A stretch of 64,000 bases of DNA, from NCBI GenBank assembly GCA_902385255.1, contig CABMEV010000004.1:34590-98589 (forward strand), given 5' to 3'. Shown here in pieces: positions 4,673 through 59,031 of this stretch (the stretch's first letter is position 1; each line of letters opens with the position of its first letter). A program made the translations under genes and the position numbers. This DNA is from Candidatus Tiddalikarchaeum anstoanum (lineage in GTDB: Archaea > Nanobdellota > Nanobdellia > Tiddalikarchaeales > Tiddalikarchaeaceae). The notes beneath the pieces are model-generated. The model made no database searches. It had not been told where the DNA came from and saw nothing but the letters and a program-made list of their open reading frames with translations.

Positions 4673-4693
4673 TTATACTTCTTGTATATTTAA

Positions 4694-28109: not shown

Positions 28110-28910
28110 TTAGAGTCCTAATTTTCTCTTAAGCCATTGGAAGAACGACTTGTCATCCTTGTCCTCTATGAATAATTCCTCTCCAGCTATCTTATTCACT
28201 ATCTGCTTTATTATCTTGGCGCTCTTGCTTTTCGGGTATGAGAAAATCACAGGCCTTTTTTCGCTGACACTCTTCATAACGTAGATATCATAAGGGACTA
28301 CTCCTAGTATTGGAAGCTCAAGGAATTCTGCAATATTCTTCTCATCAAGGTCGAATTCAAGGCCGGTTTTTTTGTTAATTATGACTCCAAGAAGCGCCAC
28401 CCTGTCTTCTTCAGCTATTTTTTTAGCGCGAAGAGCATCGGTTAATGCAGGAAGTTCAGGATTAGTAACCAGCACTAACTCATCAGCAGCTCTCACTGCC
28501 AGCTCTGCTTCCTTTCCGAGTCCTGCGCTTGAATCAACAATTATGTAATCATACTTTCCTAACAAGTCAAGAAGGGATTTGCTTAATTGTTTCCTAATCT
28601 GGGTCTTTAAATGATGGAAGCTTAACCCTCCAGGTATTACCTTTAATCCTTCCTTGGTTTTGTAAATAGCAGATTCTATGCCTACTGCGCCGCTTAACAC
28701 GTCATGGAGTGTGGGTCCTTTATCAGTTATGCCAAGCAGTATGCTGAGATTAGGTGTTGTGACATTAGCATCTATTATTAGAACGTTCTTTCCTGCCTGG
28801 TGAAGCGCTGCGGCAACATTGCAGGACATGGTGCTTTTTCCAACGCCCCCTTTACCGCTTGCGAATACTATAACACGAGTCATATTTTCAATTAATTCTA
28901 ATAACTGCAC
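28110..28910 (-). CDS. MinD/ParA-family P-loop ATPase
   Basis: It carries the deviant Walker A SGKGGVGKST. Confidence 0.8.
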   Translation of the reverse strand: MQLLELIENMTRVIVFASGKGGVGKSTMSCNVAAALHQAGKNVLIIDANVTTPNLSILLGITDKGPTLHDVLSGAVGIESAIYKTKEGLKVIPGGLSFHHLKTQIRKQLSKSLLDLLGKYDYIIVDSSAGLGKEAELAVRAADELVLVTNPELPALTDALRAKKIAEEDRVALLGVIINKKTGLEFDLDEKNIAEFLELPILGVVPYDIYVMKSVSEKRPVIFSYPKSKSAKIIKQIVNKIAGEELFIEDKDDKSFFQWLKRKLGL

Positions 28911-31016: not shown

Positions 31017-32963
31017 TTACCTCATAGTGAACCATCCACGGTTAACCGTGCAGGAAATAACACCCTTATCCTCAAGATTTGCCAGTAAAGTGTTAAACTT
31101 GGCTCTTGACATCTTGCTTGGAAGCTTTGCGAATAAAATATTCGATTTCACAGCCTTCTTTTCGCTAAAAGCCTTAACCTTTGACAAAGCCTTCAAAATA
31201 ACCTCTTCATCACCGGTTAAATTATACTCTAAAGGTTCGCTTTTTATGAAAGAGCAGAACTTTCTATAAACAGCATCGTAATCATTGGATGAGACGAGTT
31301 TTGAAAACTCCTCATTCTGCTTCAATGAAGACTCAGGAGATAACAATGAAATATTACCCTTCTTTGCACCCCTAAGCACGGCCTCCTTAATCCTTATACG
31401 GAGATTAATATTATCCAATAATTTCTTAACCGAGACGCCCTTTGTGTAAGCTATCTTGTTAAGGAGTGGTGAAACGCCAAGTTTTGAAATATTATACTTA
31501 TTGGTTGAAGAGTCAAATATTACAAGGTCTGAAAATCCATTCTCGCCTGCAGGATTATTAATCCAATTCTTACCCACCTCAGTTATACGAACAAGCTTCC
31601 TGGTATTCTCCGTCTTATCGCCTAATTCAAGGTTTGAACAACTAACAACTATATCACAAGCCTTGAAACTGGTTGGAGGAACACCTAAGTCATTAACAAC
31701 CCTGTCGAACGTGTCAAAAGCAGTGTTCCCATGGATAGTTCCGAGCACGGAACTACCTGCGGCACCAACACGCATAGCCTCAAACAAAGTCTTTGCTTCA
31801 GTTCCCCTCACTTCCCCTATAATAAGCGCGCTATCACCAAGCCTTAATGCAGTCCTAAGAACAGTCTCAGGTGATAGTTCGAATGATTCACTCCCTTCGA
31901 AACTGACAGTCTTCAAATGTTCAAGATTAAAACCCAAGTTCCTAAGATGGTTGACAGGAAGTTCCGGAGTATCCTCTATGACAATCAGCCTCAAATTGTA
32001 AGGCAGTTCGAACATTAATGAACCAAGAAGGCTCGTCTTCCCGCTCCCCCTGGGGCCTGTTATTATAATAGAAACCCGGTTATCTATGAGGAACCAAAGT
32101 AGTCCTGCAACGCTGGCTGACAAGAACCCATCATACAGCATGCGGTTAAGAGTCAGGGGAATAGTGGTATGTTTTCTGATTGCGAAGCCGGTACCGTTGA
32201 ATGACAATGGCTGGCTCACACCACATATACGCGCATTCACAGTTCCGATGTTGCTGTGAATGACTGGGAACGCTTCATCAAAAGGCCTGCCGCTGTTAAT
32301 CCTGAGAAATGTGCCAATCTTATTCACCATTTCATTCTTAAGATAGACATTAGTTGCAAGATTGCCCTTACTGGAATGGTTGACAAAAAGACGGCTGTTG
32401 CCCGGACTGTTAATGAATATATCCTGAACGTTATCATCAGAGAGGAACTCTTCAACAATACCAAGACCGGAAGTATATCTTATGACAAGGGGAACTAAGA
32501 ATAACTTATCCTTCGGCAATAACTTCTCAATATTATCCTTTTCAATCTCTTCATTCTGAACCTTTTCAACAACAGAATTCAAGAGTTCCAAGTCCTCGTA
32601 ATTTAACATGTACTCCTTAGGATTAACGAGCATTAAAGGCGAACCTTCAATATCCTTGAAGGTGAAAGTTCCGGTACTTTCATTAGCAGCCTTGTTTGGA
32701 ACCAGGTAGAATTTTATGAAAGAAGGAACTGTAACAGGTTCGAACACGTGAAAATTATCATGCAATAACGAGGAGCTAAGGCCTTTCTCATAATAAACCT
32801 TTGAATACTTCTTAACTAGTTCCAATAAATCAAAGGATAGATTAAGGCTGTTTACGCACTCGATGCATTTTGGGTTCTCAAGAGAAGCTATCGAGACGCA
32901 GTTATTGCAGTTAATCTCTAACGCATTAAATCCTATAAAACCCCTAAGATTAAACTCAACCAT
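31017..32963 (-). CDS. type II/IV secretion-system ATPase (FlaI/VirB11/GspE family) with an N-terminal Cys cluster and a C-terminal extension
   Basis: Walker A (TGPRGSGKTS) and the Asp-box/His-box region (LIVIEDTPEL...IIGEVRGTEA) are present. Cys clusters CNNC...C..C sit near the N-terminus, and about 130 extra aa follow the ATPase core. Confidence 0.8.
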   Translation of the reverse strand: MVEFNLRGFIGFNALEINCNNCVSIASLENPKCIECVNSLNLSFDLLELVKKYSKVYYEKGLSSSLLHDNFHVFEPVTVPSFIKFYLVPNKAANESTGTFTFKDIEGSPLMLVNPKEYMLNYEDLELLNSVVEKVQNEEIEKDNIEKLLPKDKLFLVPLVIRYTSGLGIVEEFLSDDNVQDIFINSPGNSRLFVNHSSKGNLATNVYLKNEMVNKIGTFLRINSGRPFDEAFPVIHSNIGTVNARICGVSQPLSFNGTGFAIRKHTTIPLTLNRMLYDGFLSASVAGLLWFLIDNRVSIIITGPRGSGKTSLLGSLMFELPYNLRLIVIEDTPELPVNHLRNLGFNLEHLKTVSFEGSESFELSPETVLRTALRLGDSALIIGEVRGTEAKTLFEAMRVGAAGSSVLGTIHGNTAFDTFDRVVNDLGVPPTSFKACDIVVSCSNLELGDKTENTRKLVRITEVGKNWINNPAGENGFSDLVIFDSSTNKYNISKLGVSPLLNKIAYTKGVSVKKLLDNINLRIRIKEAVLRGAKKGNISLLSPESSLKQNEEFSKLVSSNDYDAVYRKFCSFIKSEPLEYNLTGDEEVILKALSKVKAFSEKKAVKSNILFAKLPSKMSRAKFNTLLANLEDKGVISCTVNRGWFTMR

Positions 32964-33718: not shown

Positions 33719-34366
33719 ATGGGTTTCTTAAAAAAGATATTAGGAATAGAGAACTTGGAAAAGAAAACAGAAGACGAGTTAGACCAGGTTAAGAAGAACA
33801 TGAAAACAAGCTGGAGCTGGGTTAATTACCTGCACGAGTTAGAACAGGATAACAGGTCCAGGATAAAGAAGCTCGAAGATGAAAATTCTGAACTAAAAGA
33901 ATTATTCAAAGCAGAGATTGAACGACTTTCAAACATCCAAGTCTCACAAAATACCGGCATTAAAGTGCAGGAAAAACACATCAAACTGAATGAAGACAAG
34001 GAGAAAAGCAAAACAGTTCCGGAACAAGAAGAGGAAGATGAAGATGACGAGAAAGAGGAACTATTAGACAAGAAAGGCCTCCCCCTCAAGGAATTGGATA
34101 TACAGGGGATTGGGAAGAAAGAAGCTTATCTCCTTCAAATATTATACCAGATGGCGTGCTTTGACGGTTCCTCAAGCCTCGAGACTGGCAAGATATTTGA
34201 ACACTTGCCTTATCAGATAACAGTTAGAGGGCTTAGGAAGAAACTATACAAACTGCAGCAGCAGGGCATAATTAAATCAGTAATGTATGGGAACACAAGG
34301 AAATGGTACCTTGATATGGAGAAACTTGCAAAACTCAAGCAGTTCCTCACTGAAAGGGCAGTATAA
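33719..34366 (+). CDS. acidic coiled-coil protein with a C-terminal winged-helix-like segment
   Basis: An E/K/D-rich central region is followed by a C-terminal GIIKSVMYGNTRKWYL wHTH-like pattern. Confidence 0.4.
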   Translation: MGFLKKILGIENLEKKTEDELDQVKKNMKTSWSWVNYLHELEQDNRSRIKKLEDENSELKELFKAEIERLSNIQVSQNTGIKVQEKHIKLNEDKEKSKTVPEQEEEDEDDEKEELLDKKGLPLKELDIQGIGKKEAYLLQILYQMACFDGSSSLETGKIFEHLPYQITVRGLRKKLYKLQQQGIIKSVMYGNTRKWYLDMEKLAKLKQFLTERAV

Positions 34367-35656: not shown

Positions 35657-36163
35657 GTGTTTAATAAAACTTTCTTAGATAAGCAAAAGGAGGTTTTTGC
35701 ATTGCCAGTAATTGCTAATAATATCGGTGAAGTACGAATAAAAATTGACACAAAAGAGTCTGGAAAACTAACAGGCGTTCGAAACAATATGTTAATCAAG
35801 AACGTCGAAGAGAAAAAATTAGGCGACAAGAAAGGATTAATCCTCACAGTTGATTTATTAACCACTTACGTTAAAGAGGATGACAAACCGCTCTCACAAT
35901 TCTTAGTTGAGGAAGAAATGCTATACGCAGGAGAGGAAAAGGAAGTTAAGGAGATACTGGATGAGTGGACTAAGGACAAGAAGATACCTAAAAAGTTCGA
36001 AGACTCACTTATACAAGGATTAAACACTATCTGCATGTATGATATGCAGTTCTTCACTAACAGGATGAGATTCCCGCCATGCACAGGCTATAGCGTATCA
36101 ATAAACGCAGGCGAGGAAGAGAAAAAGAAAGACGAGAAGAAAGAAGACAAGAAAAAGAAATAA
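35657..36163 (+). CDS. hypothetical protein with a K/E/D-rich C-terminal tail
   Basis: It ends in AGEEEKKKDEKKEDKKKK. The tail resembles that of the 13994 ORF. Confidence 0.45.
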   Translation: MFNKTFLDKQKEVFALPVIANNIGEVRIKIDTKESGKLTGVRNNMLIKNVEEKKLGDKKGLILTVDLLTTYVKEDDKPLSQFLVEEEMLYAGEEKEVKEILDEWTKDKKIPKKFEDSLIQGLNTICMYDMQFFTNRMRFPPCTGYSVSINAGEEEKKKDEKKEDKKKK

Positions 36164-37085: not shown

Positions 37086-37158
37086 GCATAATTTACATAA
37101 AGAGATTTTATTAATCTTATCCTAAAAAAGAGTTGAAAGTGTTGGGATTTTAAGCCAA

Positions 37159-38281
37159 CTCACTTTTGAAAAAAAACATTCATTTTTCTGGCTGAAACAC
37201 CATACCCCTCTCCTTCATCTTCACATTTTGAAAATGTGTTGGATGTGTTGGAGTAATTTTAGTCTTCGCCACCACATTTTGGGTAAAAACTCACTATTTT
37301 TTCGAAACCCTCACTTTTGAAAAAAAAGCCTGCTATAATAGTAGTTTTTCCTATAATCACTCACTTTGTTTAATATATGGGTAATATCCATCGGATTAGT
37401 CATACTATTTATCACAAGATCTGCATTACTCACTTTTATGCTTTTGAACACGTCTTCTATGGTTCCCTCACTTTTAGAAAAAAGCTGCCTATTATGTATG
37501 CCTAAAACCGAATAAAACATGTCTGTAATGGTAAAAAGCAGGAATCCAGCCCTAAGAGGCCACATTGAGCCGAATCTGTCGAAATTACTCTTACTTTTGA
37601 TTGTTTCATTATGCCCAAGGTAGTATTTCCATAAAGTATTATCCCCATCGCACACTACAATATCATAACACTCACTTTTGATAAAATTGGCCAATTCTTT
37701 CAAATTTCGGAGAGTAAAATCAGCACTTTTGTGAGTATTCCCGTATCTATTGACTAGAATCTTATCCACCCTCACTTTTGAATTATGGTGCTTGTTTTCG
37801 AGCGCTTTTTCAAGGTTATAGGCTAGTTTTAAGTCAAGAAAGTCATCACCTATAACACCTATGCGAACAGGCCCAGAATTTGATTTTAACGCATATTGGA
37901 AGGATTTAAACAATCCTCCATATTGGTAGAATAGTTCTATTAATGCAGCTGGGTTTGGCTTTAAACCGTGTCTAATCCAGTGATAAGCGCTCACAATGCC
38001 TATATTTATGCTGTTTGCCTGTAATTCCCTCTCACTTTGAACCTGGGGAGCTGATAAGATCATTAATTATCTGGTAAAAGTATTATAGATTTAAATCTTA
38101 CCTTAAACCCTCACTTTTGGGAAAACAGGCTGTTTTTATGCCTTTTTAGCCCTATTTTAGCCTTTTTTATCACTTTTTACTATTTTAGGATCTTGCAGGA
38201 CTTATATTCACTCAAGTTATAGATTGCCAATTGATATATAGTGATAATCTATCTATCACTCACTTTGGGATAAATAAGCTA
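37159..38281. repeat. Dispersed array of at least 12 copies of CTCACTTT(T)G; four exact copies of the 12-mer CCCTCACTTTTG are followed by A/G-rich runs
   Basis: Copies lie at about 37159, 37222 (variant), 37308, 37360, 37429, 37465, 37671, 37769, 38031, 38108 and 38259. Some extend to CTCACTTTTGRRAAAA(A)GCTG..TTATG units. An inverted copy CAAAGTGAGGG lies at 40144. Confidence 0.7.
37311..38063 (-). CDS. hypothetical ORF whose frame contains five of the CTCACTTTTG repeats (each encoding a KSE/QSE tripeptide); its coding status is doubtful
   Basis: A 250-aa ORF, which is long for an AT-rich genome. The same repeat continues into both flanking non-coding regions. Confidence 0.3.
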   Translation of the reverse strand: MILSAPQVQSERELQANSINIGIVSAYHWIRHGLKPNPAALIELFYQYGGLFKSFQYALKSNSGPVRIGVIGDDFLDLKLAYNLEKALENKHHNSKVRVDKILVNRYGNTHKSADFTLRNLKELANFIKSECYDIVVCDGDNTLWKYYLGHNETIKSKSNFDRFGSMWPLRAGFLLFTITDMFYSVLGIHNRQLFSKSEGTIEDVFKSIKVSNADLVINSMTNPMDITHILNKVSDYRKNYYYSRLFFQK

Positions 38282-38392
38282 TTTTTAGCTGCTTTTATGT
38301 ATTTTTTTGATTCTTCAATCAATATTTTAGGTTAATTTTTATCCTATCTACCTATATATCGAGTTAATCTAGAAAAAATTATAAATATTTGA

Positions 38393-38470
38393 CGTGTTGA
38401 CTAATGTGTTTAATATGTTGTCGAAAGTGTTGGATGTGTTGGACTTGTTGTTGAATGTGTTGTGGTGGTT
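38393..38470 (+). repeat. Iteron-like array of about 7 units of (A)TGTGTTGGA with roughly 9-12 bp period, just upstream of the 38501 gene
   Basis: The sequence reads gacgtgttgactaatgtgtttaatatgttgtcgaaagtgttggatgtgttggacttgttgttgaatgtgttgtggtgg. Related copies lie at 37234..37253 and 7265..7275. Confidence 0.6.
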
Positions 38471-38500
38471 CTAATGGGCATTTTAGATATAATTTACAAT

Positions 38501-39085
38501 ATGGTAAATAAATCCAAGCAAAAAAAGGCCAAAAAACCAAAACAAAAGCACGAAAAACATGCTGCCAATAATGGAAAAACAGGGCAGGTGCAGGAAACCA
38601 AGCAGAAATTGGAGCAAAAGATAATAGTCAAGGATTTGTCAGATACTGAAAAACTGCTGAAAGCGTGGGATTCAAGCGTCAAGAACGTTTCAGACCATCC
38701 ATTATCACAGGTTAAAATCATTAATACGCAGATATTGGAGCAGTTAACTGATATACTCACTTCTATGAACTCAAAATTAGACCGCCTGGATGTGTTAGAA
38801 GAGATTTTGAGGCTACTTAAGGATTCCAGGGCTGAAATCAGGGTTGTTGGTGGAAGTACTGAGAAATTGGATGCTGCTATCTCTAAAATTGAGGGTTTGA
38901 CTATCAAGGATGAAGAGTTTATCCGCGTCTTGAAGGATAAGGGGCCTCAAAGTGCTGATTCCATAAGCCGTTTGGTTGGCATTTCAAGGAGCACAGCTTC
39001 AAGCAGATTGAATAAATTGGAGAAGTTTAAGCTTGTTAAGAAGAATGCTGACGGCAAAGATATTTATTATTCATTGAACCAATAA
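38501..39085 (+). CDS. basic N-tail protein with a C-terminal winged-helix DNA-binding domain (regulator or Rep-like)
   Basis: The C-terminus reads SISRLVGISRSTASSRLNKLEKFKLVKK..DIYYSL (HTH plus wing). The start was placed at the MVNK ATG embedded in the 22-bp box with a TATA-like TTTAGATATAA just upstream; the ORF track starts at 38462. Confidence 0.5.
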   Translation: MVNKSKQKKAKKPKQKHEKHAANNGKTGQVQETKQKLEQKIIVKDLSDTEKLLKAWDSSVKNVSDHPLSQVKIINTQILEQLTDILTSMNSKLDRLDVLEEILRLLKDSRAEIRVVGGSTEKLDAAISKIEGLTIKDEEFIRVLKDKGPQSADSISRLVGISRSTASSRLNKLEKFKLVKKNADGKDIYYSLNQ

Positions 39086-39622
39086 AAAATATTATCAAAG
39101 GTTTTAATAATTTATCAAAAGTTTTATCGTGCTGTTTTTTCAGTATTTTTTATCGTTTTTTTGATTTTTTTCTAATTTTCTATATTCCATCTCGTTTACA
39201 AAATTTGGATTGACTTTTTTTAGTTCGGTAAGATGATAGTTTCTTTCTTTTTCCATGTCGTCTTTTATATTTCTTAATATGTCTGATAAGCTGATTAGTC
39301 CGTTTCTTACGAAATCATTTTTCATTACTATTATGGATTTCATTACTTCTTTATAGGTTTTTAGCGCCTTTTTTAGCTGCCTAAATAGGGCTCGGAATAT
39401 ACCCTCCAGGCGAAAGTTTTAGGCCTAAAATGCGTTAAAATGACCCCGTTGTTTCCTATGGATATATCGGCTTTCTATACATAGAATTTGGCCGGATTTC
39501 ATTATGTCTTCCTCCAGTAATCTGTATGACAAGCTCCCTATATCTTTTATAGAATAGTAGTTAGGGAACCACTTTCGTAAACCTTATATGTCGCTCTCCA
39601 CTTATAGAAAACTGGTATATTT

Positions 39623-39970
39623 ATGAAAAACGTGATGTTTTTGGTATTCGGAAACCACCCCAAAGCTAACAGCATAAAAGAGCGTGCTCTGGTGATTATT
39701 AAGTTCCTGAAAGGCAAGGACTGGGTGGACTTAAACGACATACAAAAAGAGCTTAACATAGACAGGAACGAAAGCCCCAGCATGTTCTATAAACCTCTTA
39801 GTGCGATGAAGCGCTGGAAGCTGCTTGACAGTAAGCGCCAGGTTACAGGCGGCCGAGGAGTGCACGTTATCTACACGACTTATTACAAGTTTACCCCAGA
39901 CCATTTTCTTACATATTTGAAAGACACTTTGTACGCAGTGTGCGATACAGAGCTTAAAATGTTCAAATAA
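39623..39970 (+). CDS. small winged-helix (MarR/PadR-like) DNA-binding protein
   Basis: The stretch LVIIKFLKGKDWVDLNDIQKELNIDRNESPSMFYKPLSAMKRWKLLDSKRQVTGGRGVHVIY reads as helix-turn-helix plus a beta-wing. Confidence 0.5.
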   Translation: MKNVMFLVFGNHPKANSIKERALVIIKFLKGKDWVDLNDIQKELNIDRNESPSMFYKPLSAMKRWKLLDSKRQVTGGRGVHVIYTTYYKFTPDHFLTYLKDTLYAVCDTELKMFK

Positions 39971-40978
39971 TTTAATATTAATTTACCATATTGTAATTAT
40001 GTGGGTGCCCATATAGTCAAAAAACATTGCATACTTTTTAATACATTATTACCATATAGTAAATAAATTGAGATTACACCTCGAAAAATTCCACTATCTG
40101 CCGAAAACTAAAAACTGAGTGAGACATCAAATTTAAGAGAATGCAAAGTGAGGGATAATTATAAATTTTATTAATGTGATTTATAATATTTATTAATTAA
40201 TAATTATGTAATATAATATGGTCTTTTATAATAACAAAGAAATAATAACTAATGAACATGATCTTGCATATTTAAAATATTTTGATTGGTTTTTATCACT
40301 TAGCTCAGATAAGTTAAAGAATTTAAATGTTTTATTTAAAAAATCGTAAAATTGATTTGTATATAAAAGCAAATAAAATTATAAAAAGTCCAGACCTTAT
40401 TTCAAAATCTCAGATACAAGATATTAAATCCAAACGAATTACAAATAAAAAAAGATGAAGTAAATATAATTTTAATGGGCGGAGAATCTAATATTGATTC
40501 ATTAGATGATATGTCAGATTTTTAGATCATGGGGTTGTCATAAGAGAGCCTGCGACGAATTAATAAACTGGTTTTATGAAGAATCCAATCTTAAAAAAAT
40601 GACCATTATAGTCCCTTTTGACACTATTTTCAGTACGTATAATGCTAATTTGAATACTCCAAAATATAAAGAATATTTCTTAAACGTATATAATTCTAAA
40701 AAAACTTCATTCAAAATAAATCAAGACCAAGCAATAACTGTTTTGTCTAAAATAGTTATTTAAAATTTTTCAAAGATAACAAGTCCCAAAAAAAATAAAT
40801 TAATCAAACAATAATATTTTAAGCAATTAATACTAAACTAAGTTTCAGGAACTCTAGATTTAATACTTATTTTGTTAGGTATAACTTATATTTTGGCTAA
40901 AATTTCAATTAAAAGCCTTTTTAACAGACGCATGCCTTGTTAAAAATAATAATATTAATAATAGGGGGTGCAAAAAGA

Positions 40979-41146
40979 ATGCTAGTTGTAAGAAAAGCAG
41001 CAAAAGAAGCTGGAAAGAAGTACGAAATGAGATTCCCAGACGAGACTATTGATGCTCTTGACAAGTATTTAGATGAAAAAATAAAGAAAGCCGCAGACAG
41101 AGCTAAAAAGAACGGAAGAAGTACTTTAAGAGAATATGACTTCTAA
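40979..41146 (+). CDS. small histone-fold protein (archaeal-histone-like, alpha3-truncated)
   Basis: The 55-aa sequence aligns by eye to HMfB alpha1-L1-alpha2-L2 (RKAAKEAG..FPDETIDALDKYLDEKIKKAADRAKKNGRSTLREYDF against RIIKDAGAE..VSDDARITLAKILEEMGRDIASEAIKLARHAGRKTIKAEDIE). A Shine-Dalgarno-like AGGGGGTG lies 8 nt upstream of this ATG, whereas the ORF-track start at 40937 lacks one. Confidence 0.4.
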   Translation: MLVVRKAAKEAGKKYEMRFPDETIDALDKYLDEKIKKAADRAKKNGRSTLREYDF

Positions 41147-41290
41147 AAGCTAAAAAAAATCATTTTTCAAACTTTTTTTTTAATGTTTCTAATTTTTATG
41201 ATTTAAGGCAAAAGATAAACGCCTATAAAAAAAAGTACTTCTAAAAAATACTTAAAATAACAACACGCATCTCCTAAAGACTATACAAAA

Positions 41291-42079
41291 ATGTTAAATA
41301 AAAAAATAATACAAAATAGACTAGAACTAATAACACGAAAATGGTGGTTTTTCTTAGCATTAATACTCCTTCAATTCATACCCCCATACGCATCCAAAGG
41401 AATAACAAGCTGGCAAGACTCAGGATACCTTACCGGAGCAGTACTAACAAACGCATTAATCAATAATATATCAATATTATACCCAGTTTTCAAAATAATA
41501 CCAATAATACTAGTCATCTCAATAATATTATACAAGAACAAAGCTAGAAGAATATTCAGCATTTACGCAGGAATAAACTACGCACTATTTGCAGTACTGC
41601 AAAACGTAGGAATCACCGAACAATACGGCCTAGGAATAGTCACAATCAACGTAATCATGTTCTTAATAGTTGCAATATCCTGGTTCTGGGAATCAATCAT
41701 CCAAAAAAATGACTTCACGATAAGAAAAATACCAAAATGGAAATACTTACTAATAATATTATCATTCATCGCATTCTGGTACCCGACCGAACCAAAAACT
41801 TTCACACCCAACTTTAACCCATTAGGAATAATAACAAACATGGCAGGACTAGCATTCTGCACAATGACACCATTCTACATAACAATACTAATCATATACT
41901 ACCCTAAAATAAACACTGCAACACTAAGAATAACAAGCCTCATCGGATTCATACTCGCATTTTACAATATCTGGGTGAACTTCTTCATCTCCCCAACTAC
42001 ACTATGGTGGAACGGTATACTGCACATACCATTATTGATAACGTCAGTCACGGGAATAATATGCTCATACAAAAAATAA
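41291..42079 (+). CDS. polytopic membrane protein
   Basis: At least 7 predicted TM helices. Confidence 0.5.
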   Translation: MLNKKIIQNRLELITRKWWFFLALILLQFIPPYASKGITSWQDSGYLTGAVLTNALINNISILYPVFKIIPIILVISIILYKNKARRIFSIYAGINYALFAVLQNVGITEQYGLGIVTINVIMFLIVAISWFWESIIQKNDFTIRKIPKWKYLLIILSFIAFWYPTEPKTFTPNFNPLGIITNMAGLAFCTMTPFYITILIIYYPKINTATLRITSLIGFILAFYNIWVNFFISPTTLWWNGILHIPLLITSVTGIICSYKK

Positions 42080-42088
42080 TATTTTTAC

Positions 42089-42559
42089 TTAACTTTTTTG
42101 CGCAATAAACGATTTAAAAAATCTTCTAACTGATTCGTGCGAGAAAGCATTGAACAATAATTGAATAATATAAAGAGCTAATAATATAACTCCAAGAGTT
42201 AAGTTCTCCTTCCACACAAGTATCACTAAAACATAATTGGCAAAGAAATACAGCATTAAATAAGGAATTAACAAGTACAGTTTAGACTTGGACCGAAAAT
42301 TAATCTTCAAAACCCAATCCAAAACAACCTCAAAACCCAAGTAGACTAACACTATTACTAAATATAAGTAGTAAAAAAGAGGCTTGTTCTCAAATATTGA
42401 AAGAATCAAGCAAATAATAGCAAGCGGAATAACCAAGACTAAGTAAGCGAAACCGAACGTTTTAATTAATTTATTATTTTTAACCCTATTGGAATTAAAG
42501 ACGCAGATAAGCAATAAATTATGCACGAGCCCTAACACAAACGCTAGTTCTAAAAACAT
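42089..42559 (-). CDS. membrane protein
   Basis: About 5 TM helices. Confidence 0.4.
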   Translation of the reverse strand: MFLELAFVLGLVHNLLLICVFNSNRVKNNKLIKTFGFAYLVLVIPLAIICLILSIFENKPLFYYLYLVIVLVYLGFEVVLDWVLKINFRSKSKLYLLIPYLMLYFFANYVLVILVWKENLTLGVILLALYIIQLLFNAFSHESVRRFFKSFIAQKS

Positions 42560-42617
42560 AAATTAAGCCAAATGGCCTCAAATTAATAAAAATATCGATG
42601 AGAACGTTGGGATCAAA

Positions 42618-43181
42618 ATGCTTTTATTATCTTTACTTTTTCCTAGAAAAATAATGGACCTTAAGGAGTTAATAAGCAAAAAAGAGATAGATGCTAAAAT
42701 AACTGAGTTGTCAGGAGTAATCATTAACGACTTCGGCAGCAGCGTCTATGCAATGACTGTACTTGAAGGTGCAAGAGTATTCTCCAACTACTTAATACAA
42801 AATCTGAGAACTAACAGCTCTACAGTAGAGAATGACTACATAAAACTATCCAGCTACAATGAAGGCACAGAATCAAGCGGGAAGATAACGATAAAGAAAA
42901 ATCCTGAAAAAGACTATAAAGGCAAGAAAATCCTAATCATTGAAGACATAATAGACACAGGGCTAACACTAAAATTCCTGAAAGACTACCTGACACGAAA
43001 CGGCGCAAGCCAAGTAAAGATATGCACATTACTAGACAAGCCAAGCCGAAGAACTGTAAAAATAACACCTGACTACTGCGGATTCACAATACAAAACCTG
43101 TTCGTTGTCGGCTTTGGCATAGACTTTAACGAACAATATAGAGAACTACCCTGCATATACTACATCGAACCCAACACTTAA
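42618..43181 (+). CDS. hpt: hypoxanthine/guanine phosphoribosyltransferase
   Basis: It carries the PRPP-binding motif KILIIEDIIDTGLT. The size is typical of HPRT. Confidence 0.8.
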   Translation: MLLLSLLFPRKIMDLKELISKKEIDAKITELSGVIINDFGSSVYAMTVLEGARVFSNYLIQNLRTNSSTVENDYIKLSSYNEGTESSGKITIKKNPEKDYKGKKILIIEDIIDTGLTLKFLKDYLTRNGASQVKICTLLDKPSRRTVKITPDYCGFTIQNLFVVGFGIDFNEQYRELPCIYYIEPNT

Positions 43182-43453
43182 TAAAAAATACAACCCCACA
43201 AAACCCAAATTCAGAATTATAAGAATGCGTAATGCATAAGAATTATAAACAAAGCATTAAGGACTACTAACAAAATAATTAATTTAGTCCTTCCCATTGA
43301 TTTAATCTTCCTTATAGTTGACATATTCATTATAATATATACAGTATAAATTATTACAAGAATAGCTGCGCCAAGAAAATTACCACGTACTTCCATAAAA
43401 AAATAATACATTACGTATATAAATATTAAACTCTTTAGAATAATACGAGACCA

Positions 43454-43873
43454 ATGAAGAAATCAAATCCAAAAATTGACGAATCTGCACCTAAACTGAT
43501 TGGCAAACATATTATAGAACTTGATGATTGGCGCGGAAAGATATTAACTACTATTCGTAAAATAATTCACGACGCAGATCCAGACATAATAGAAGAATTG
43601 AAATGGAAGAAACCAACCAACCCAGCAGGTACACCAGTATGGTCCCATGATGGGATTGTCTGCACTGGAGAAACATACAAAGATCATGTAAAACTGACTT
43701 TTGCCAAAGGCGCCTTCTTGAAGGATCCAAAACGCATATTTAACGCTAGCCTTGAAGGTAATTTAACACGCGCAGTCGATATTCACGAGGGTGAAACTAT
43801 TAACGAAGCTGCTTTAACAGAACTTATTCGTGCTGCAGTAGCCTACAACATATCCGAAAAGAAAAAACGATAA
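43454..43873 (+). CDS. DUF1801/YdhG-like domain protein
   Basis: The pattern resembles the YdhG-like fold and the 52183 ORF. Confidence 0.45.
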   Translation: MKKSNPKIDESAPKLIGKHIIELDDWRGKILTTIRKIIHDADPDIIEELKWKKPTNPAGTPVWSHDGIVCTGETYKDHVKLTFAKGAFLKDPKRIFNASLEGNLTRAVDIHEGETINEAALTELIRAAVAYNISEKKKR

Positions 43874-44074
43874 TCTTCTTATAAGAATTAGTTTCAGAAC
43901 CATTTCTCAATTATTTTAAATAAGCTAAAAAAACGCAATACCAAAGAATTCAGAACAAAAATAATAAACTTTCCTAAAAAAATAATATTAATTTACAATA
44001 AAAATTCACTTAAAAAGATTACTAAATACTATATTTCTCAAAAATGTTTTTAAATTGATTTTTCTAAACAGTTA

Positions 44075-44860
44075 ATGAATATGAGTACTGCTATAGATGT
44101 TTTAGAGATGGAAATCGCGAAAGAAGAATTAAAATATGACGCTATAATTAAGGATATTAACGACGGCATAAAAATTAGACTATTCCTGCCATTTTTAAAG
44201 AAAAAGATTGAAAAATTAAAATCTGAATATGAAGCATTAAAAAAAACAGGATTAGAAGAAAGCCTAACTATTCACGCAGCAATTATCGGAAGACCAGAAT
44301 TTTACTCCTGCATTAAATACGATCCTTGCTGGAAACAAAACCAGCAGAAATCAAGCTTCAGGTGGGAGTGGGACCTCTATAATCCAACAATCACCAACTT
44401 AGGCTCAGCACTAACAGCAATAGTAGAGGAAGAGGACCCAAACATATACAGAAACTTTGACTGGATAATTAAAAAAACATCAATGCCAAATATAAGATAC
44501 ATACACAATATACACGGCGAATTATTCGGAATCTACATCGGAAGCTCTTACCAAAAAACAGTCAATACCTTAGAAGAAGCAGTAAAAGAAATAATACCAT
44601 TAATAAAACACTACGAAGGATACAAACAAGAACTAAAACAGATAAAAAAGAATAAAAAAACGAATAAGGCAATAAATGAAAAAGAAGTAGTGCCGGAATT
44701 AGACAATAACCAAGTAATTGAGAAACCAATAATAATATCAGCAGCACCGAAAAATAACGACGACGTAATAAGCGAGATTACCAGAAGAAAAAACGAGATA
44801 CTAAAGAATCAAAGAGAAGAAAGATATAAGATGATAGTAAGAACTTTAAAAATCGCCTAA
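44075..44860 (+). CDS. hypothetical protein
   Basis: A 261-aa ORF with no recognisable motif. Confidence 0.4.
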   Translation: MNMSTAIDVLEMEIAKEELKYDAIIKDINDGIKIRLFLPFLKKKIEKLKSEYEALKKTGLEESLTIHAAIIGRPEFYSCIKYDPCWKQNQQKSSFRWEWDLYNPTITNLGSALTAIVEEEDPNIYRNFDWIIKKTSMPNIRYIHNIHGELFGIYIGSSYQKTVNTLEEAVKEIIPLIKHYEGYKQELKQIKKNKKTNKAINEKEVVPELDNNQVIEKPIIISAAPKNNDDVISEITRRKNEILKNQREERYKMIVRTLKIA

Positions 44861-44866
44861 AAAGCA

Positions 44867-45244
44867 TTAAGTTCCGGAGCTAAAACTCATCCAAAAGAAC
44901 CATACACCAATTAATAGTATAACTATTCCCCAGATTACTTGCTGAGACTTAAAATCCTGAGCCCTCTTATTAACATGACCTGGAAAACCAATCTTGGTAA
45001 TACCCTTAAAGAAAGTAACCCAACCTAAGATAGTAACAGTAACCCTCCAGTCAAAAACCCATAAATTATGCAGTACAACAGTGCCAAGACCTAATAAGAA
45101 AGTGATATAACCTGTAGATACGGTAATAGCTTTCTCCTCAGTGTATTTAATAATCCTGCCCAACAACTTAGCAATAATAGACATTAGTCCAAGACAAATA
45201 AAAAGGCTGCCCCAAAACCTTGCCAAAAAAATAGTAACATCCAT
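44867..45244 (-). CDS. membrane protein
   Basis: Four TM helices. Confidence 0.4.
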   Translation of the reverse strand: MDVTIFLARFWGSLFICLGLMSIIAKLLGRIIKYTEEKAITVSTGYITFLLGLGTVVLHNLWVFDWRVTVTILGWVTFFKGITKIGFPGHVNKRAQDFKSQQVIWGIVILLIGVWFFWMSFSSGT

Positions 45245-45325
45245 ACATTAAACTAAGAACTGAGGCAAGTTAAATATTTTTCCCAAAAAGAGTTTTTTTT
45301 TGATTAGTTTTATAAAAAAAATAAT

Positions 45326-46294
45326 TTATCCACCGCTATACTTCACCGTATTTATAGGATAAACCTCGTACAAAATCGTTGATTCATATTTTAATATATT
45401 ATCAGGGAACTTATTCCTCAACTCCTTCAACAAGTCATGAAGTTCGAAATGAGACTCAAGCACCGCCTCAAACTCCAAATCCCACCTGCCAAGACCCTTA
45501 ACAATCTGAGTAACAGACTTCTTACCGGCAAGAAAATGAACCAAATCCTTATACTTAACCTGATTCATATTAGTCAAATTAAGAAAGATATGGAAATTAT
45601 TCAAATTAAACTTTTTAGGATTAACCCTGATTTTAAAACCAGTAATTATCCCTTCTTTAAAGAGCCTCTTCATCCTAACCCTGACCATTTGCGGACTCAA
45701 ACCCAGCTTGGAAGTTAGTTCAATCATCGGCTTTCTCGAATCCTCCTTAATACTGTTAATTAACAAGTAATCCTTCTCATCCAGCTTAACATCTCCTTTA
45801 ACATTCACAACTTCATCAACCCTAACCTCCTTTTCGCTATACAAGTAATTGTAAGGCAGATAATAGATTCTTGATGCAATGCTCAACTCCTTGTCAATCA
45901 AATGATTATCCAAGGAATAAATTATCGAGTCATAAATCTCATCAATCTCTTTAATCGTTTTTGCTAAGAATATGACGCAAAAATCGAACGAGCCGTCAAG
46001 CCTGGCAGCAAAATGAATATTTTTAAGCTTGGACAAGGAATTAACAAGCGAGTCTTTGATTTTCTCAGAAAAACCCATAAACTTCAAAAAAAGCCTGCAG
46101 TACATGTAACCCAGCTTAGCCCTATTAACAGTAGTGCAAAAAAGAGTGATTACACCATCATCAACCAATTTCTTAATCCTGTAATTGACAATATTCTTAG
46201 GCAAACCCACTTTTTTACCAATCTCGGAAAAAGACCGCCTGCTGTTATTATCCAACTCCTTAATTATTCTTTCGTCCTTAACGCTGAGCTTCAT
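45326..46294 (-). CDS. tandem-duplicated Lrp/AsnC-family transcription regulator (2x HTH plus RAM-like domains)
   Basis: Two HTH_AsnC-like segments are present (RIIKELDNNSRRSFSEIGKKVGLPKNIVNYRIKKL and LLINSIKEDSRKPMIELTSKLGLSPQMVRVRMKRL). Confidence 0.7.
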   Translation of the reverse strand: MKLSVKDERIIKELDNNSRRSFSEIGKKVGLPKNIVNYRIKKLVDDGVITLFCTTVNRAKLGYMYCRLFLKFMGFSEKIKDSLVNSLSKLKNIHFAARLDGSFDFCVIFLAKTIKEIDEIYDSIIYSLDNHLIDKELSIASRIYYLPYNYLYSEKEVRVDEVVNVKGDVKLDEKDYLLINSIKEDSRKPMIELTSKLGLSPQMVRVRMKRLFKEGIITGFKIRVNPKKFNLNNFHIFLNLTNMNQVKYKDLVHFLAGKKSVTQIVKGLGRWDLEFEAVLESHFELHDLLKELRNKFPDNILKYESTILYEVYPINTVKYSGG

Positions 46295-46372
46295 AATATA
46301 TCAAAATAGATGTTTTTGGTTAAAAAGCTTACTTTTTGAGCTATTTTTTAATAAATAGTTTAAACTAAAATA

Positions 46373-46954
46373 ATGGGCTATATGTATTTTATGAAAAACA
46401 ACCTTGAAGATTTAATAACTAAAAACAAGTCTGAAATCTTTAACTTAGTTAACGATTTGGACTCTAAATATTTGCCAGAGTTTAATACGGCCTATAGAAG
46501 CTTAAATGAAGGAGTTTCCCGCGAAGACCTGCTTGATCCAGATACTCCGGAGATTGAAAACCCTTACCATTTCGATTTTGTTAAAAGAAAAGGATTAATA
46601 CTTGATGTAATATCAAATGGCGACTTTGATTTCTCAAGATACTCTGTAGTATTCGACATTGATGCTAGGTCAATCTATCACACTTCATACAGGAGCGACA
46701 CGAAAGAAACAGTGCCAATACTCGAATTCTATGGCAATAGATTAGTTCCAGTTTTCAATGTTCAAATACCTGATATTACAGGAATCAGGTGCACTGACAA
46801 AAATGACTGGATGAAATACCATGACAAGATTGTCTCAAAGCTTAAGGAACTAAAGCAGGAAGAAATTAACAAAAAAGCCAGCGAGTCTAAAGAAGAGCCT
46901 GACATCTTTGGCGGAAGAGACTTCGCGCACTTTGACCACTTATTCGAGGACTGA
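46373..46954 (+). CDS. hypothetical protein, tandem paralogue A
   Basis: It is homologous to the next ORF (VFDIDARSIYHTSY..TVPILEFYGNRLVPVF against VFDIKSKTIYRTVF..AVPILDCSEDKLIPLY). Confidence 0.45.
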   Translation: MGYMYFMKNNLEDLITKNKSEIFNLVNDLDSKYLPEFNTAYRSLNEGVSREDLLDPDTPEIENPYHFDFVKRKGLILDVISNGDFDFSRYSVVFDIDARSIYHTSYRSDTKETVPILEFYGNRLVPVFNVQIPDITGIRCTDKNDWMKYHDKIVSKLKELKQEEINKKASESKEEPDIFGGRDFAHFDHLFED

Positions 46955-46963
46955 AAACGAAAA

Positions 46964-47506
46964 ATGAACGAGCTTGAAAACATCTTAACTAAAATAAACG
47001 AACTAAAACTTAAGAAAGTGAATTTTCCTGAATATTTTGCAGCTTACAGGCTCATAAAGAATGATAAGAGCCACATAGAGTATTATACCTCTATTTGCGC
47101 AAGAGAAGTTCCCAACCAGTACGATTACAAATTTTTCAAACGCGAAGGATTCGTATTGGAAGTTCAGGATGAAAGCCATTTCATTTACTGCGTTGTTTTT
47201 GACATAAAATCAAAAACGATTTATCGGACAGTCTTTGGAATGAATGAAAACAAAGCAGTTCCAATACTTGACTGCTCAGAGGATAAACTAATTCCCCTCT
47301 ACAAAAAATTCGGGTCGCAAGATGATTATGCTGACACTAATTCAAGCAACTGCTTCATGGAAAGTGACTGGAGGACTTTCAGTAAAGAAATCAGTGAAAT
47401 CCTTGCCGATTTTAGCATGTCAGAAAAATATAACAAAGTCAAGGAAGAGGATGATTACTCAATAAGAAAATTCAGGATAGACGCTGATTGGGATATCATC
47501 CAATAA
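46964..47506 (+). CDS. hypothetical protein, tandem paralogue B
   Basis: Paralogous to the 46373 ORF. Confidence 0.45.
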   Translation: MNELENILTKINELKLKKVNFPEYFAAYRLIKNDKSHIEYYTSICAREVPNQYDYKFFKREGFVLEVQDESHFIYCVVFDIKSKTIYRTVFGMNENKAVPILDCSEDKLIPLYKKFGSQDDYADTNSSNCFMESDWRTFSKEISEILADFSMSEKYNKVKEEDDYSIRKFRIDADWDIIQ

Positions 47507-47517
47507 AATAAAGGAAG

Positions 47518-48369
47518 ATGAAAAATATGAAAATAATTTTTTTAGGAACAGGAAACGCTTGGGGACTGCCAAACGAAATAATCCAAAACACCACAGACGT
47601 GAAAGATTACAGGAAAAGAACATCACTGTACATAGAATCAGGCAAGAATATCTTGATTGACTGCGGACCAGACTTCAAAGAACAAAGAATAAAGTACGAA
47701 ATCAAGAACATTGATGCACTACTGCTCACGCATACGCACCAGGACCACACAGGAGGATTGGATGAATTAAACATTTACAGAAGGGCTTACAAGAACTGGA
47801 AACTACCAACTTACGCTCACACGGATGCAATAAAGTATTTGAAAGAAAAAAAAGACCTAAACTACCTATTTGACTCAATACTAATAGAAAAAATAGTAAC
47901 TCCTGACGAATCTTTCCCCCTTGACAACTTATTAGTCACTCCGTTTAAGACAAATCACGGAAGCTTCGCACCAGGCTCAGTAGGCTACATAATTGACGAA
48001 AAAGACAAAAGAATAGTCTATACTTCTGACTTCAGCAGCATAGTAAATGACGCTAAAATAAAAGAAAAAAACATAGACAAGTTAGTGATTGAAACCAACT
48101 GGTTCAGCGAACCATTAACCAACAAGCCGGGGCACATGAGCTTCCAGAATGCGCTAAAATACATAGAAGACTGGAAGCCTAAAGAAGTCTACCTGACCCA
48201 CTTTGGCGATGAAATAATACAAAACGAAAAAATATTACCTTACAAGAACCCGACAAACCACAAAGAATGGGACGAAGCAGTCAGACAAGAATTCACCAAA
48301 AGAGGACTAACCCAATACTTGAAGCAAGAAAACATCATCACATTTGACGGACTAAAGATTGAATTATGA
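47518..48369 (+). CDS. metallo-beta-lactamase-fold hydrolase (PhnP/tRNase Z-like)
   Basis: It carries the LLTHTHQDHTGG (HxHxDH) motif. Confidence 0.7.
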   Translation: MKNMKIIFLGTGNAWGLPNEIIQNTTDVKDYRKRTSLYIESGKNILIDCGPDFKEQRIKYEIKNIDALLLTHTHQDHTGGLDELNIYRRAYKNWKLPTYAHTDAIKYLKEKKDLNYLFDSILIEKIVTPDESFPLDNLLVTPFKTNHGSFAPGSVGYIIDEKDKRIVYTSDFSSIVNDAKIKEKNIDKLVIETNWFSEPLTNKPGHMSFQNALKYIEDWKPKEVYLTHFGDEIIQNEKILPYKNPTNHKEWDEAVRQEFTKRGLTQYLKQENIITFDGLKIEL

Positions 48370-55886: not shown

Positions 55887-56073
55887 ATTATGGATTAATA
55901 GTCGGCTTATTCAGAGTCGTAATGATGGGTTTTTCAACCTATGTCATGTACAACATCCCTCTCATAATTGTTTTGACAAATGCAATTTCAGGATTTCTGG
56001 AAATAGTACTCCTCTCTGTGCTGCTTGCAGTGATAGGAAATAAAATTTAATAAAAAATATTTTTTTTTAAAAT

Positions 56074-56262
56074 TCAGCAGGTGAATAAGTCGTCAACAGT
56101 TGTGCTTAAAGCTTTGGCAACATCCATTGCGAGCTTGAGCGAAGGGTTATACTTGTTCTTTTCAAGAAAAATTATAGTCTCCCTTCTCACGCCAACTTTC
56201 CTCGCCAGTTCTTCCTGAGTCAAGTTGTACTTCGCCCTTAACTCCTTAATATGATTCTTCAT
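56074..56262 (-). CDS. XRE/Cro-type HTH transcription regulator
   Basis: It carries [28 protein letters not shown] and is 62 aa. Confidence 0.75.
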
Positions 56263-56522
56263 GAGTTCCTGTAAAACAAGTAACTGATGCCAAAAACAGC
56301 AGCCATCACACCCACTGTAAGATTAGTCACCAAACTAGGCCTTATGCTTGGAAATTCATCAATAAACCACGAGGCAAACAAGACCAAGTATAATGATACG
56401 TAAAAGCTTGTTGACGCAGTCTTCTGCATAATATTCCTTGAACGCTCATCATCAAGAGGCAATCCCTTCCTGACACTCTCATGCATCCTCAAAATGTAAG
56501 GCACGAAGAATGCAATCAGCAA
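56259..56522 (-). CDS. small membrane protein, co-transcribed with the HTH regulator
   Basis: Two TM helices. The gene overlaps the HTH regulator gene by ATGA. Confidence 0.45.
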
Positions 56523-56701
56523 TAAGTGACTAGTACTGAACCAATACTGCTCAATAAATCTCCTTTTGTTATTGTGGTAACGCCATATATGACAAGAGTG
56601 GCAGACAATAAAACAAATAAAGTAAGCCTGATGTAATACTTCCTCTTATCCAGACCTTTTTTGTTAGATTTAGTTAACATAATGTTAGAAATAGTTAACA
56701 C
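56516..56701 (-). CDS. small membrane protein
   Basis: One or two TM helices. The gene overlaps its downstream neighbour. Confidence 0.35.
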   Translation of the reverse strand: MLTISNIMLTKSNKKGLDKRKYYIRLTLFVLLSATLVIYGVTTITKGDLLSSIGSVLVTYC

Positions 56702-56756
56702 TTACTTATAAATTTTTCTAAAAGTTTTATTTATTCACACCTTAGCCGGACAAATT

Positions 56757-57446: not shown

Positions 57447-57482
57447 AGCCTATAAGGAGCTAAATATCTGTGAATAACTCTT

Positions 57483-57881: not shown

Positions 57882-57906
57882 TAGCATTCAAGGCTGATAA
57901 TTACAT

Positions 57907-58671: not shown

Positions 58672-59031
58672 GGATTAATTGTTCAACGTTCCCGTTTATA
58701 AGAATTACTATTCGCTACTAGGATTATATGGGTTTTAATATCTGAATTTAAAAGAATTCTTAATTCTTATTCCTGTAAGTTATTATTATTCCATTCTTAG
58801 TGAATTCGCTTCTTAAAATCTCATACATTGAAAATAGATTATTAACTATGTCCCTGCTGGTGTTAACCGGAATAGACATTGTGAAAACCCGTCCATTCGG
58901 AGCATAAACACCCAGCGCATCAGCGATATCCTGATTATTCATAAAATAACTTAAGAAAATACTTAATATAAAAATCTGATGTTATTATAATAACAAAAAA
59001 CTTACTAAAAGTTATTTTTAACTAACTCATA

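Follow-up and report, generated by a model that had tools for sequence, protein, structure and literature searches.

A conserved locus of Nanoarchaeia in which two oriented arrays of short DNA motifs lead up to a winged-helix gene

Candidatus Tiddalikarchaeum anstoanum is a DPANN archaeon of the class Nanoarchaeia, order Tiddalikarchaeales (CG07-land), whose genome is available only as a metagenome-assembled genome (MAG) of 56 contigs and 1.16 Mb (PMC8561730). In the 64-kb stretch of contig CABMEV010000004.1 analysed here (the window; positions are counted from its first letter), an island rich in short repeats lies between an MBL hydrolase gene and position 40979. Open reading frames (ORFs) of at least 80 amino acids occupy 0.51 of 37100–40950 compared with 0.84 of the remaining window; the island is the minimum of the window, only 13 of 602 sliding windows have a coding density as low, and 12 of these 13 overlap it. 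What is such an island for? An initial annotation, which had correctly noticed the collapse of coding density, offered a replication origin or an integrated plasmid- or virus-like replicon as the answer. Our comparison of related genomes points instead to 37134–40152 as a chromosomal locus conserved across lineages of the class Nanoarchaeia and centred on c0, a gene for a winged helix-turn-helix (wHTH) protein (38474–39085, + strand). The island is a composite of this conserved block, of two clade-specific genes within it and of the edge of a variable region (40160–40950). With a probability of about one half, we propose that c0 binds an array of its own, motif B, autoregulates and builds a large nucleoprotein complex, and that a second motif, A, is a second class of oriented sites.

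Loci with c0 were retrieved by peptide patterns, which included the recognition helix of the protein, and the scan of one genome per GTDB species gave 23 of them; a further sample of 26 metagenome loci was also analysed. At least 66 relatives of c0 were found by a word-indexed search, and 31 clusters at 50% identity with E ≤ 1e-30 by a full hidden Markov model (HMM) scan. Those with a named source organism are all assigned to Nanoarchaeia or Nanoarchaeota. In 21 of the 23 genome loci, 2–9 copies of motif A, all on the c0 strand, lie at −200 to −1400 and are followed at −15 to −450, directly upstream of c0, by the TGTTGG(A) units of motif B. Most of the 26 metagenome loci show the same motifs in the same order and orientation upstream of c0. 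Together, ~50 related loci share the A array, an AT-rich spacer, a B array phased at 21 bp and c0 itself, in a matching gene neighbourhood. The conserved genes upstream are, in order, a T2SSE/FlaI-like ATPase (31017–32963), c4 (33719–34366), a small membrane protein, a D-aminoacyl-tRNA deacylase (DTD) and c1 (35657–36163), a gene that 22 of 25 loci have upstream of their arrays. Between c1 and c0, the MBL gene and ORF250 (c7) are present in a Tiddalikarchaeales-like clade only. The 4.7-kb metagenome contig L001 has the order DTD, c1, MBL, ORF250, wHTH gene with a 45%-identical ORF250, and its DNA motifs, read by eye, match those of the window in kind and place. The literature on DPANN searched with replication-origin and iteron or centromere terms, and that on the motif sequences, did not describe this architecture.

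Motif A (CTCACTTT) is present in 12 exact copies in the 64 kb, where 2.6 are expected. Ten of these form an array on the + strand at 37159–38266 (copies at 37159, 37310, 37360, 37429, 37467, 37671, 37771, 38031, 38110 and 38259), in which near-copies are found at 37290, 37590 and 38169, while a single − strand copy lies at 40145. The logo across loci gives aaCtCTCACTTTt as the extended consensus. Within 2 kb upstream of c0 in 25 loci, 112 copies are on the c0 strand and 1 is on the opposite strand; the density there is 2.26 per kb compared with 0.049 per kb elsewhere, a 46-fold difference. The motif also marks both ends of the conserved block. At the left edge (37140–37252, + strand, between the MBL gene and ORF250), a B unit TGTTGG (37140–37145) is followed by the first A copy (37159–37166) and by a 9-nt tandem B pair, GTGTTGGATGTGTTGGA, on the + strand at 37236–37252, and a matching A copy and B pair stand at this position in L001, L005, L006 and L007. 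At the right edge (40112–40152, − strand), the inverted A copy (40145–40152) is accompanied by a near-copy (40112–40119). The forward copies, the last at 38259, and the inverted copy at 40145 enclose 1.9 kb with two genes, and reverse copies 0.45–2.0 kb downstream of the c0 start are seen in 12 loci. A candidate for the binder of motif A was c1, but this protein is modelled with the fold of a SecB-like chaperone (Foldseek E 3e-4 against SecB of H. influenzae), so that c1 is no obvious DNA binder and is unlikely in this role. SecB is a bacterial protein, which makes a SecB-like c1 unexpected in an archaeon.

Could the oriented A sites form a polar barrier, bound by a terminator-type protein and blocking replication forks or read-through transcription in one direction only? 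RTP–Ter in Bacillus and TTF-I at Sal boxes are such barriers, and the rtp gene adjoins its own sites. As in Bacillus subtilis, a winged-helix gene lies beside the presumed, oriented sites at the c0 locus, and the site groups are opposed; the 112:1 bias of motif A, the opposed copies past c0 in 12 loci and the variable, island-rich region alongside the c0 block would suit such a function. However, c0 has neither sequence kinship nor detailed fold kinship with RTP, no specific protein is tied to motif A, and the opposed A groups are only ~2 kb apart and very unequal, with 10 versus 1–2 copies. Fork-trap systems are not known in archaea, and the skew gives no evidence for a terminus at the island. 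We consider a polar barrier very improbable, and for motif A we return to the proposal of a second class of sites next to those of c0.

That motif A is maintained at the level of DNA, or of antisense RNA, is best seen in c7 (ORF250, 37311–38063, − strand), a protein-coding gene of the Tiddalikarchaeales-like clade whose antisense strand carries 6 copies; one more overlaps its stop codon. This reading frame had been taken for doubtful and full of repeats, but it is a real gene, with homologues of 41–49% identity, 7 syntenic orthologues and a codon score within the range of genuine genes. When synonymous codons were resampled with the c7 proteins held fixed, 0.13–0.32 A copies were expected compared with 2–6 observed in all 7 of 7 orthologues (P ≤ 0.007 each). 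The excess over the synonymous-codon expectation means that selection acts on the motif as DNA, or in antisense RNA, and that the protein sequence does not produce it incidentally. One A position is common to all seven orthologues, and the remaining positions turn over between lineages. Concerning the protein itself, its motifs GDS..D and a conserved DxD(N/G)TL (D.D(N/G)TL), which stand in unusual order, together with a weak, marginal HAD-IIIC match, suggest a divergent HAD-like phosphatase. Exact-sequence contig look-ups for the NCBI copy of ORF250, and likewise for the gene c9 described below, gave no match.

Motif B was recognized from 9-nt tandem pairs of GTGTTGGA at 37236/37245 (37236–37252) and 38427/38436 (38427–38443). 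The second pair sits in a degenerate array of 9, 12, 21 and 30 nt spacings at 38394–38463 (+ strand), which is composed of TGTTGA, TGTCGA and TGTTGG units. Across loci the logo of the motif reads a(t/a)gTGTTGGA, and half-sites of the type TGT[TC]G[AG] are spaced by 9 nt in 192 cases and by 12 nt in 89. These two spacings add up to a super-repeat of 21 bp, and a locus can have as many as 27 half-sites. Upstream of c0, the density of motif B in 25 loci is 5.8 per kb compared with 0.19 per kb elsewhere (31-fold). Neither a dyad nor a G-string is visible in the logos of motifs A and B. From the last A copy to the B array extends an AT-rich spacer (38267–38393, ~23% GC), and in 31 loci the equivalent spacer has a median length of 98 bp and a mean GC of 21%, compared with 34% for the loci. 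Inside the spacer of the window is a TATA-like box, TTATAAATA, at 38378–38386; the B array begins ~8 nt past it and reaches to the GGTGG Shine-Dalgarno-like sequence of c0. A TATA-like box 8–15 nt ahead of the first B unit is likewise found in L001, L004 and L008. With a TATA-like box before it and a GGTG Shine-Dalgarno-like sequence after it, the array there spans the transcription start and the 5′ leader.

This placement invites the alternative that the motifs act in RNA, as CUCACUUU and GUGUUGGA repeats of a long c1-to-c0 transcript or of its 5′ untranslated region that are recognized by an RNA-binding factor or serve as serial terminators. The motif copies do lie on the sense strand of c0, the B array of the window is probably transcribed in view of its position between TATA-like box and Shine-Dalgarno-like sequence, and T-rich tracts follow the A copies. 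But B pairs are reversed in L001, L042 and L043, the A copies downstream are inverted, and in the Tiddalikarchaeales-like clade A copies are antisense to c7, an expressed-looking gene. A conserved RNA structure or an Rfam match was not found. We give this alternative little credence and continue with c0 as a protein that would recognize motif B in DNA.

The c0 protein has 203 amino acids. Its AlphaFold model (mean predicted local distance difference test score, pLDDT, 71) comprises an N-terminal amphipathic helix (residues 3–12), a disordered, Lys-rich linker (14–52), a domain of helices across 58–140 and, at the C-terminus, a winged helix (144–201), over which the pLDDT is ~90. Foldseek ranks the ArsR/SmtB repressors CzrA, SmtB, NolR and HlyU at the top, while AspA, an archaeal centromere-binding wHTH protein, appears only at rank 39. 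HMM NF033788 matches at 1e-08 (34.9 bits, below its 55-bit cut-off), and Pfam HTH_24 matches above its cut-off. As judged from the model, c0 has the winged helix-turn-helix fold of the ArsR/SmtB type and is a lineage-specific protein. The resemblance to the ArsR/SmtB repressors is in the C-terminal 60–80 residues, which match in fold and HMMs; in contrast to them, c0 has 140 further residues, scores under the family cut-offs, and its presumed sites are phased direct repeats instead of a single palindromic operator. The recognition helix SRSTASSRLN is invariant in an alignment of 35 sequences, and so are the motif cores: c0 proteins are only ~35–65% identical among lineages that share invariant 7–8-nt cores. 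For the N-terminal 11-mer, which is amphipathic, the mean hydrophobic moment is 0.53 versus 0.29 after shuffling; in the close clade, the net charge of the linker ranges from +8 to +17. At the N-terminus, the MG(F/L)L..(K/R)L motif resembles the membrane-targeting helices of the MinD type, which we treat as a lead only. The N-termini of c4 and c0 are alike and amphipathic (MGFLKKILGI and MGILDIIYNM, the latter encoded at 38474–38515; the counterparts in other lineages are MFKRLFGI and MGLLSRLLGR), and the two peptides may share a motif for binding to the membrane or to a partner.

From these observations we infer which protein binds which motif, autoregulation and tethering, as follows. Oligomers of c0 would bind B half-sites that lie in phase on one face of the helix and would coat the promoter and the 5′ region of their own gene, which would lead to autoregulation of c0 and gather one large nucleoprotein complex at one place in the chromosome. 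A tether between this complex and the membrane, or a partner protein, may be provided by the amphipathic helix at the N-terminus together with the polybasic linker. Motif A would add oriented DNA sites of another class, recognized by some factor, and would bracket the block. In the Tiddalikarchaeales-like clade, MBL, c7 and c9 are extra genes inside the conserved frame. Several points weigh against this proposal. We infer that c0 is the partner of motif B and not of motif A or of a palindrome, E, that lies within the island; palindromes are the usual targets of ArsR and MarR dimers, and c0 itself contains a perfect one, a copy of E. The peptide patterns used for retrieval included the recognition helix, so that its conservation together with the motifs is partly built into the sample. 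Up to 27 half-sites far exceed what autoregulation needs. The placement of the B array varies between lineages, being upstream of the likely promoter in some and extending into the codons of the Lys-rich linker in others, so that not every case fits a simple operator model. An AT-rich spacer is to be expected in any archaeal promoter region. Finally, the proposal does not account for the role of motif A.

Segregation systems offer a further comparison. In centromeres of type Ib and type II, a repeat array overlaps the promoter of the gene for the binding protein, and at the c0 locus the densely packed, phased B array lies next to a TATA-like box, apparently over the promoter of the presumed binder's gene. 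The locus could be a centromere-like or chromosome-anchoring site, at which c0 would coat the B array in the manner of ParR–parC or the omega–heptads and tether the locus through its N-terminal helix to the membrane or to a partner in partition or division. With ParR–parC, the omega–heptads and AspA of pNOB8 it would share an array of short repeats over the promoter of the presumed binder's gene, a small binder (AspA is a wHTH protein as well) and a single site cluster per replicon that is expected to nucleate a higher-order complex. The singleness of the locus, the amphipathic helix and polybasic linker of c0, the similar MGFLKKILG peptide at the start of the neighbouring coiled-coil protein c4, and the presence of AspA among the fold matches are all in favour. 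Unlike these systems, however, c0 has no gene for a motor nucleoside triphosphatase (NTPase) of the ParA, ParM or TubZ type beside it: the neighbours are c1, DTD, MBL, c7 and c9, and the nearest MinD/ParA gene is 10 kb off (28110–28883). c0 adds an amphipathic helix and a helical domain, and its locus has a second, unrelated oriented array, motif A, for which a centromere does not account. The match to AspA reflects generic wHTH similarity, and membrane binding by the c0 helix is a prediction. A function in segregation or anchoring is possible but unlikely, and binding of c0 to its own array with autoregulation remains our preferred reading.

The initial annotation saw in the island the general layout of an archaeal oriC or of a plasmid replicon. 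One part of this stands. The site array, the AT-rich stretch, the phased direct repeats and the DNA-binding gene do resemble an iteron-type replicon, and tandem repeats with a period of ~17–22 bp, an AT-rich region and an adjacent gene for a putative binder, the hallmark of such replicons, can be recognized from sequence in the B array, the spacer and c0. Likewise, the repeats tied to the adjacent small DNA-binding genes are selected, functional DNA elements, as the initial annotation implied. The other part does not stand: an initiator gene and an origin recognition box (ORB) were not found, and no skew switch is seen in the stretches covered. Its statement that orc1/cdc6 is missing from the window agrees with our Pfam, Walker-A and tblastn scans. 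Among 61 related loci, Orc1/Cdc6 was found near c0 in one. In this locus, L010 from a Nanoarchaeota MAG, a gene for a 353-amino-acid protein of the Cdc6/Orc1 family (4899–5960, − strand; Cdc6_lid 5e-17) lies 1 kb downstream of c0, and the region upstream of the Cdc6-like gene holds no array like A, B or ORB; roughly estimated, ~0.3 cases of a nearby Cdc6-family gene are expected by chance in the 23 genome-scan loci. The canonical ORB, a TTCCA-N-TGGAAA dyad with G-rich extension, has 18 matches at ≤2 mismatches in the 64 kb, where 36 are expected, and the island contains one palindromic site. Cumulative GC skew reaches its extremes at ~22 and ~60 kb of the window and not at the island, the skew at four-fold sites shows no switch at the island within the 64-kb window, and GC and AT skews of the left and right flanks of 25 loci (flanks of 6–10 kb) do not switch consistently. 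The bias of gene strands flips at the island (24–37 kb mostly −, 41–64 kb mostly +), but this holds for the window only and is not shown by relatives. With no Orc1/Cdc6 and no ORB, with opposed A copies that flank genes and without a skew switch in the stretches covered, a canonical archaeal origin is not supported. Known archaeal origins with orc1/cdc6 or whiP resemble the locus in that they are gene-poor, have AT-rich stretches, contain repeated sites that face both ways and adjoin genes for small DNA-binding proteins; they differ from it by an adjoining orc1/cdc6 or whiP gene, by the dyad and G-string of their ORBs and by a skew signal, of which the stretches covered show none, and in that the opposed repeats at the c0 locus flank genes instead of a DNA-unwinding element (DUE).

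Conservation of the island in place but without its repeats, which would have counted against the initial reading, was not observed; relatives keep the block at its place and the repeats with it, and on this account a non-canonical origin or a centromere-like role retains some probability. An origin of the former kind would be iteron-type and distant from Orc1, with motif A as accessory or initiator boxes, the spacer 38267–38393 as the unwinding element, motif B as iterons and c0 as the origin binder. About 50 loci keep the arrangement in which an A array, an AT-rich spacer (21% GC, median 98 bp), 21-bp-phased repeats and a DNA-binding gene follow one another, there is a single locus with the c0 array per 64 kb, and the strand-bias flip in the window and the Cdc6-family gene of L010 can be added in its favour. 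A precedent comes from Sulfolobus, where accessory origin motifs are bound by proteins other than Orc1 (PMC12141716). As in the iteron-type theta replicons pSC101, R6K, RK2 and F, direct repeats with a period of ~21–22 bp lie by an AT-rich stretch upstream of a winged-helix gene, with additional accessory sites on one side. Unlike those replicons, the locus is chromosomal and syntenic across an archaeal class, is known from sequence alone, and belongs to genomes that encode Orc1/Cdc6; c0 is a single ArsR-like wHTH protein, and its model contains, besides the helical domain, neither an AAA+ domain nor the WH1–WH2 fold of Rep proteins. Matches of c0 to PHROG Rep families are marginal and confined to the generic wHTH. 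ORC1/Cdc6 is reported in 206 of 208 complete Nanobdellota genomes (10.64898/2026.05.13.725050). Its absence from the window and from the vicinity of c0 in 60 of 61 related loci speaks against an origin, as do the lack of an ORB with dyad and G-string, the skew extremes at ~22 and ~60 kb with no switch in the four-fold-site skew and no consistent change in relatives, and an arrangement different from the ORB(−)/DUE/ORB(+) of archaeal origins (10.64898/2026.08.15.744077). We regard such an origin as distinctly unlikely. Under the reading that we prefer, with c0 on its own B array, the same layout would serve autoregulation and assembly of the complex.

Downstream of c0, the conserved block contains several smaller modules. 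Directly past the c0 stop codon, two AAA(A/G)GTTTTA(A/T) copies of the AAAAGTTTTA type (motif C, 39094–39130, + strand) are kept in close relatives. They are followed by a possible gene of 67 amino acids (39140–39343, − strand) with a good codon score, for which no homologue was detected. The part of the island that had been described as a GC-richer, ORF-free patch has an average GC content of 38.7%, and its non-coding nature stands: it contains patch D (39385–39622), a conserved non-coding block with the core GCTCCCTATATCTTTTATAGAATAGTAG (also given as GCTCCCTATATCTTTTATAGAA), which includes the palindrome CTATA-N5-TATAG. Patch D is present even in relatives without c9. An alignment of 7 sequences shows strong conservation of the DNA and an invariant 8-pair hairpin with no covariation, and no Rfam family matches; for this reason a non-coding RNA in 39360–39620 was dropped, and patch D is read as a putative promoter or operator palindrome. 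A dif/Xer site, suspected there by eye, was discarded because its arms are not kept as a palindrome between relatives. The gene that follows, c9 (39623–39970, + strand), encodes a winged-helix protein of 115 amino acids with a weak match to TFIIE-alpha and is found in some close relatives only; together with c0 it confirms that the island holds two small wHTH proteins, as initially annotated.

The palindrome TTTACNATATNGTAA has 4 sites in the window versus 0.3 expected, three of them in the island, so that the repeats noticed initially are real and, as for motif A, far above chance. In the form of palindrome E (TTTACAATATGGTAAA) it lies at 38493–38508 within codons 7–12 of c0, and further copies are at 39982–39997 and 40048–40063. 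A fourth exact copy, TTTACAATATGGTAA, stands outside the island at 7244–7259, ~100 nt upstream of the start of a − strand gene (5915–7144). The distribution suggests that the palindrome may serve a dimeric regulator as its operator and that the targets of this regulator extend outside the island. Next to the island, a gene for 55 amino acids (40979–41146) had been annotated as histone-fold; no Pfam histone model matches, while chains with a CBFD_NFYB_HMF domain do (8fvx and 8cmp, 64–66 amino acids, E ~0.002), and the histone-fold reading is weakly supported.

Is any part of the island acquired DNA? For 37134–40152 the synteny rejects an integrated plasmid or virus, because the block lies in the same neighbourhood, with its repeats, in ~50 loci, and many genomes keep it at this place beside these neighbours. 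No DNA match to the island was found among 50,697 phage and 72,556 plasmid records, IMG/VR contained no relatives of c0, and integrase, Rep families and att-like flanks were not found in the island. What could be called foreign is the low-GC tail at 40160–40950. It has a low GC content and only doubtful, small and degenerate-looking ORFs without homologues, and it stands at the end of synteny, where relatives carry DprA, HNH, AIPR, radical-SAM/DUF5131, ResIII and STAND genes in DNA of 14–30% GC. A remnant of acquired DNA is conceivable only for this tail of 0.8 kb, and as an explanation of the island a plasmid or virus-like remnant is hardly credible.

The description of the whole island as extremely AT-rich does not hold either: GC is 34.9% in 37100–40000, close to the window mean of 35.8%, and low only in 40000–40950 (23.6%). 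At 40160–40500, the A+T content is 81.5% and not ~85%, and the most AT-rich 350 bp of the window lie elsewhere, at ~5431–5900 (17.4% GC). In L005, L006 and L007, sequence homology stops immediately past the inverted A copy; in these loci and in L029, GC drops to 14–30% for kilobases beyond it. None of the window genes at 40937–48369 is present within 10 kb downstream of c0 in relatives. This break of synteny and GC places 40160–40500, which had been proposed as a DUE, in a variable slot and not in the conserved element. In our explanation, 40160–40950 is a nearly empty remnant of this low-GC slot, whose start directly follows the inverted A copy. The low-GC DNA of relatives (L029 11582–19878; L006 7406–10390; L007 9800–11587) encodes DprA, radical-SAM/DUF5131, HNH, bPH_2 and AIPR proteins, a STAND NTPase and a ResIII helicase, and the slot beside the c0 block looks like a hotspot for defence or mobile genes. 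Contigs end within ~1.6 kb downstream of c0 in L001, L004, L005, L009, L012, L014, L021, L023 and L026, and L004 has a scaffold gap in patch D; contig ends at the tail boundary are consistent with strain-level variability.

Elsewhere in the window, coding density falls to the level of the island in one stretch, at ~55900–59750 (0.49). The lowest GC of the window (17–26%) is found at 3875–5797, a segment with genes for a Fic/DOC protein and for one that weakly matches a CARF-associated HTH; the segment adjoins a gene for a PIF1-like helicase (1377–2714) and is probably acquired or defence DNA. Rfam and tRNA scans of the whole window gave two tRNAs, both outside the island, and no other RNA family.

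Replication, segregation and gene control are almost unstudied in DPANN archaea because most of these organisms cannot be grown in culture. The c0 locus offers a handle that can be tested in vitro, namely one lineage-specific DNA-binding protein and two motif cores in strictly oriented arrays. Defence and mobile genes collect at a hotspot next to the locus, where metagenome assemblies also tend to break, and c7 is a case in which selection at the level of DNA overrides codon choice. Tentatively, and aware that it goes well beyond our proposal, we speculate that the locus is a cis-acting site of chromosome maintenance, be it an iteron-type origin distant from Orc1 or a centromere or membrane anchor confined to one locus, where membrane-tethered c0 would occupy the 21-bp array and motif A would set polarity and boundary. 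If the locus is only an autoregulatory operator, it would still be an unusually clear cis-regulatory architecture kept over such divergence. If instead the arrays nucleate a membrane-tethered complex, an origin or a centromere, they would represent a new solution to chromosome maintenance in ultra-small cells.

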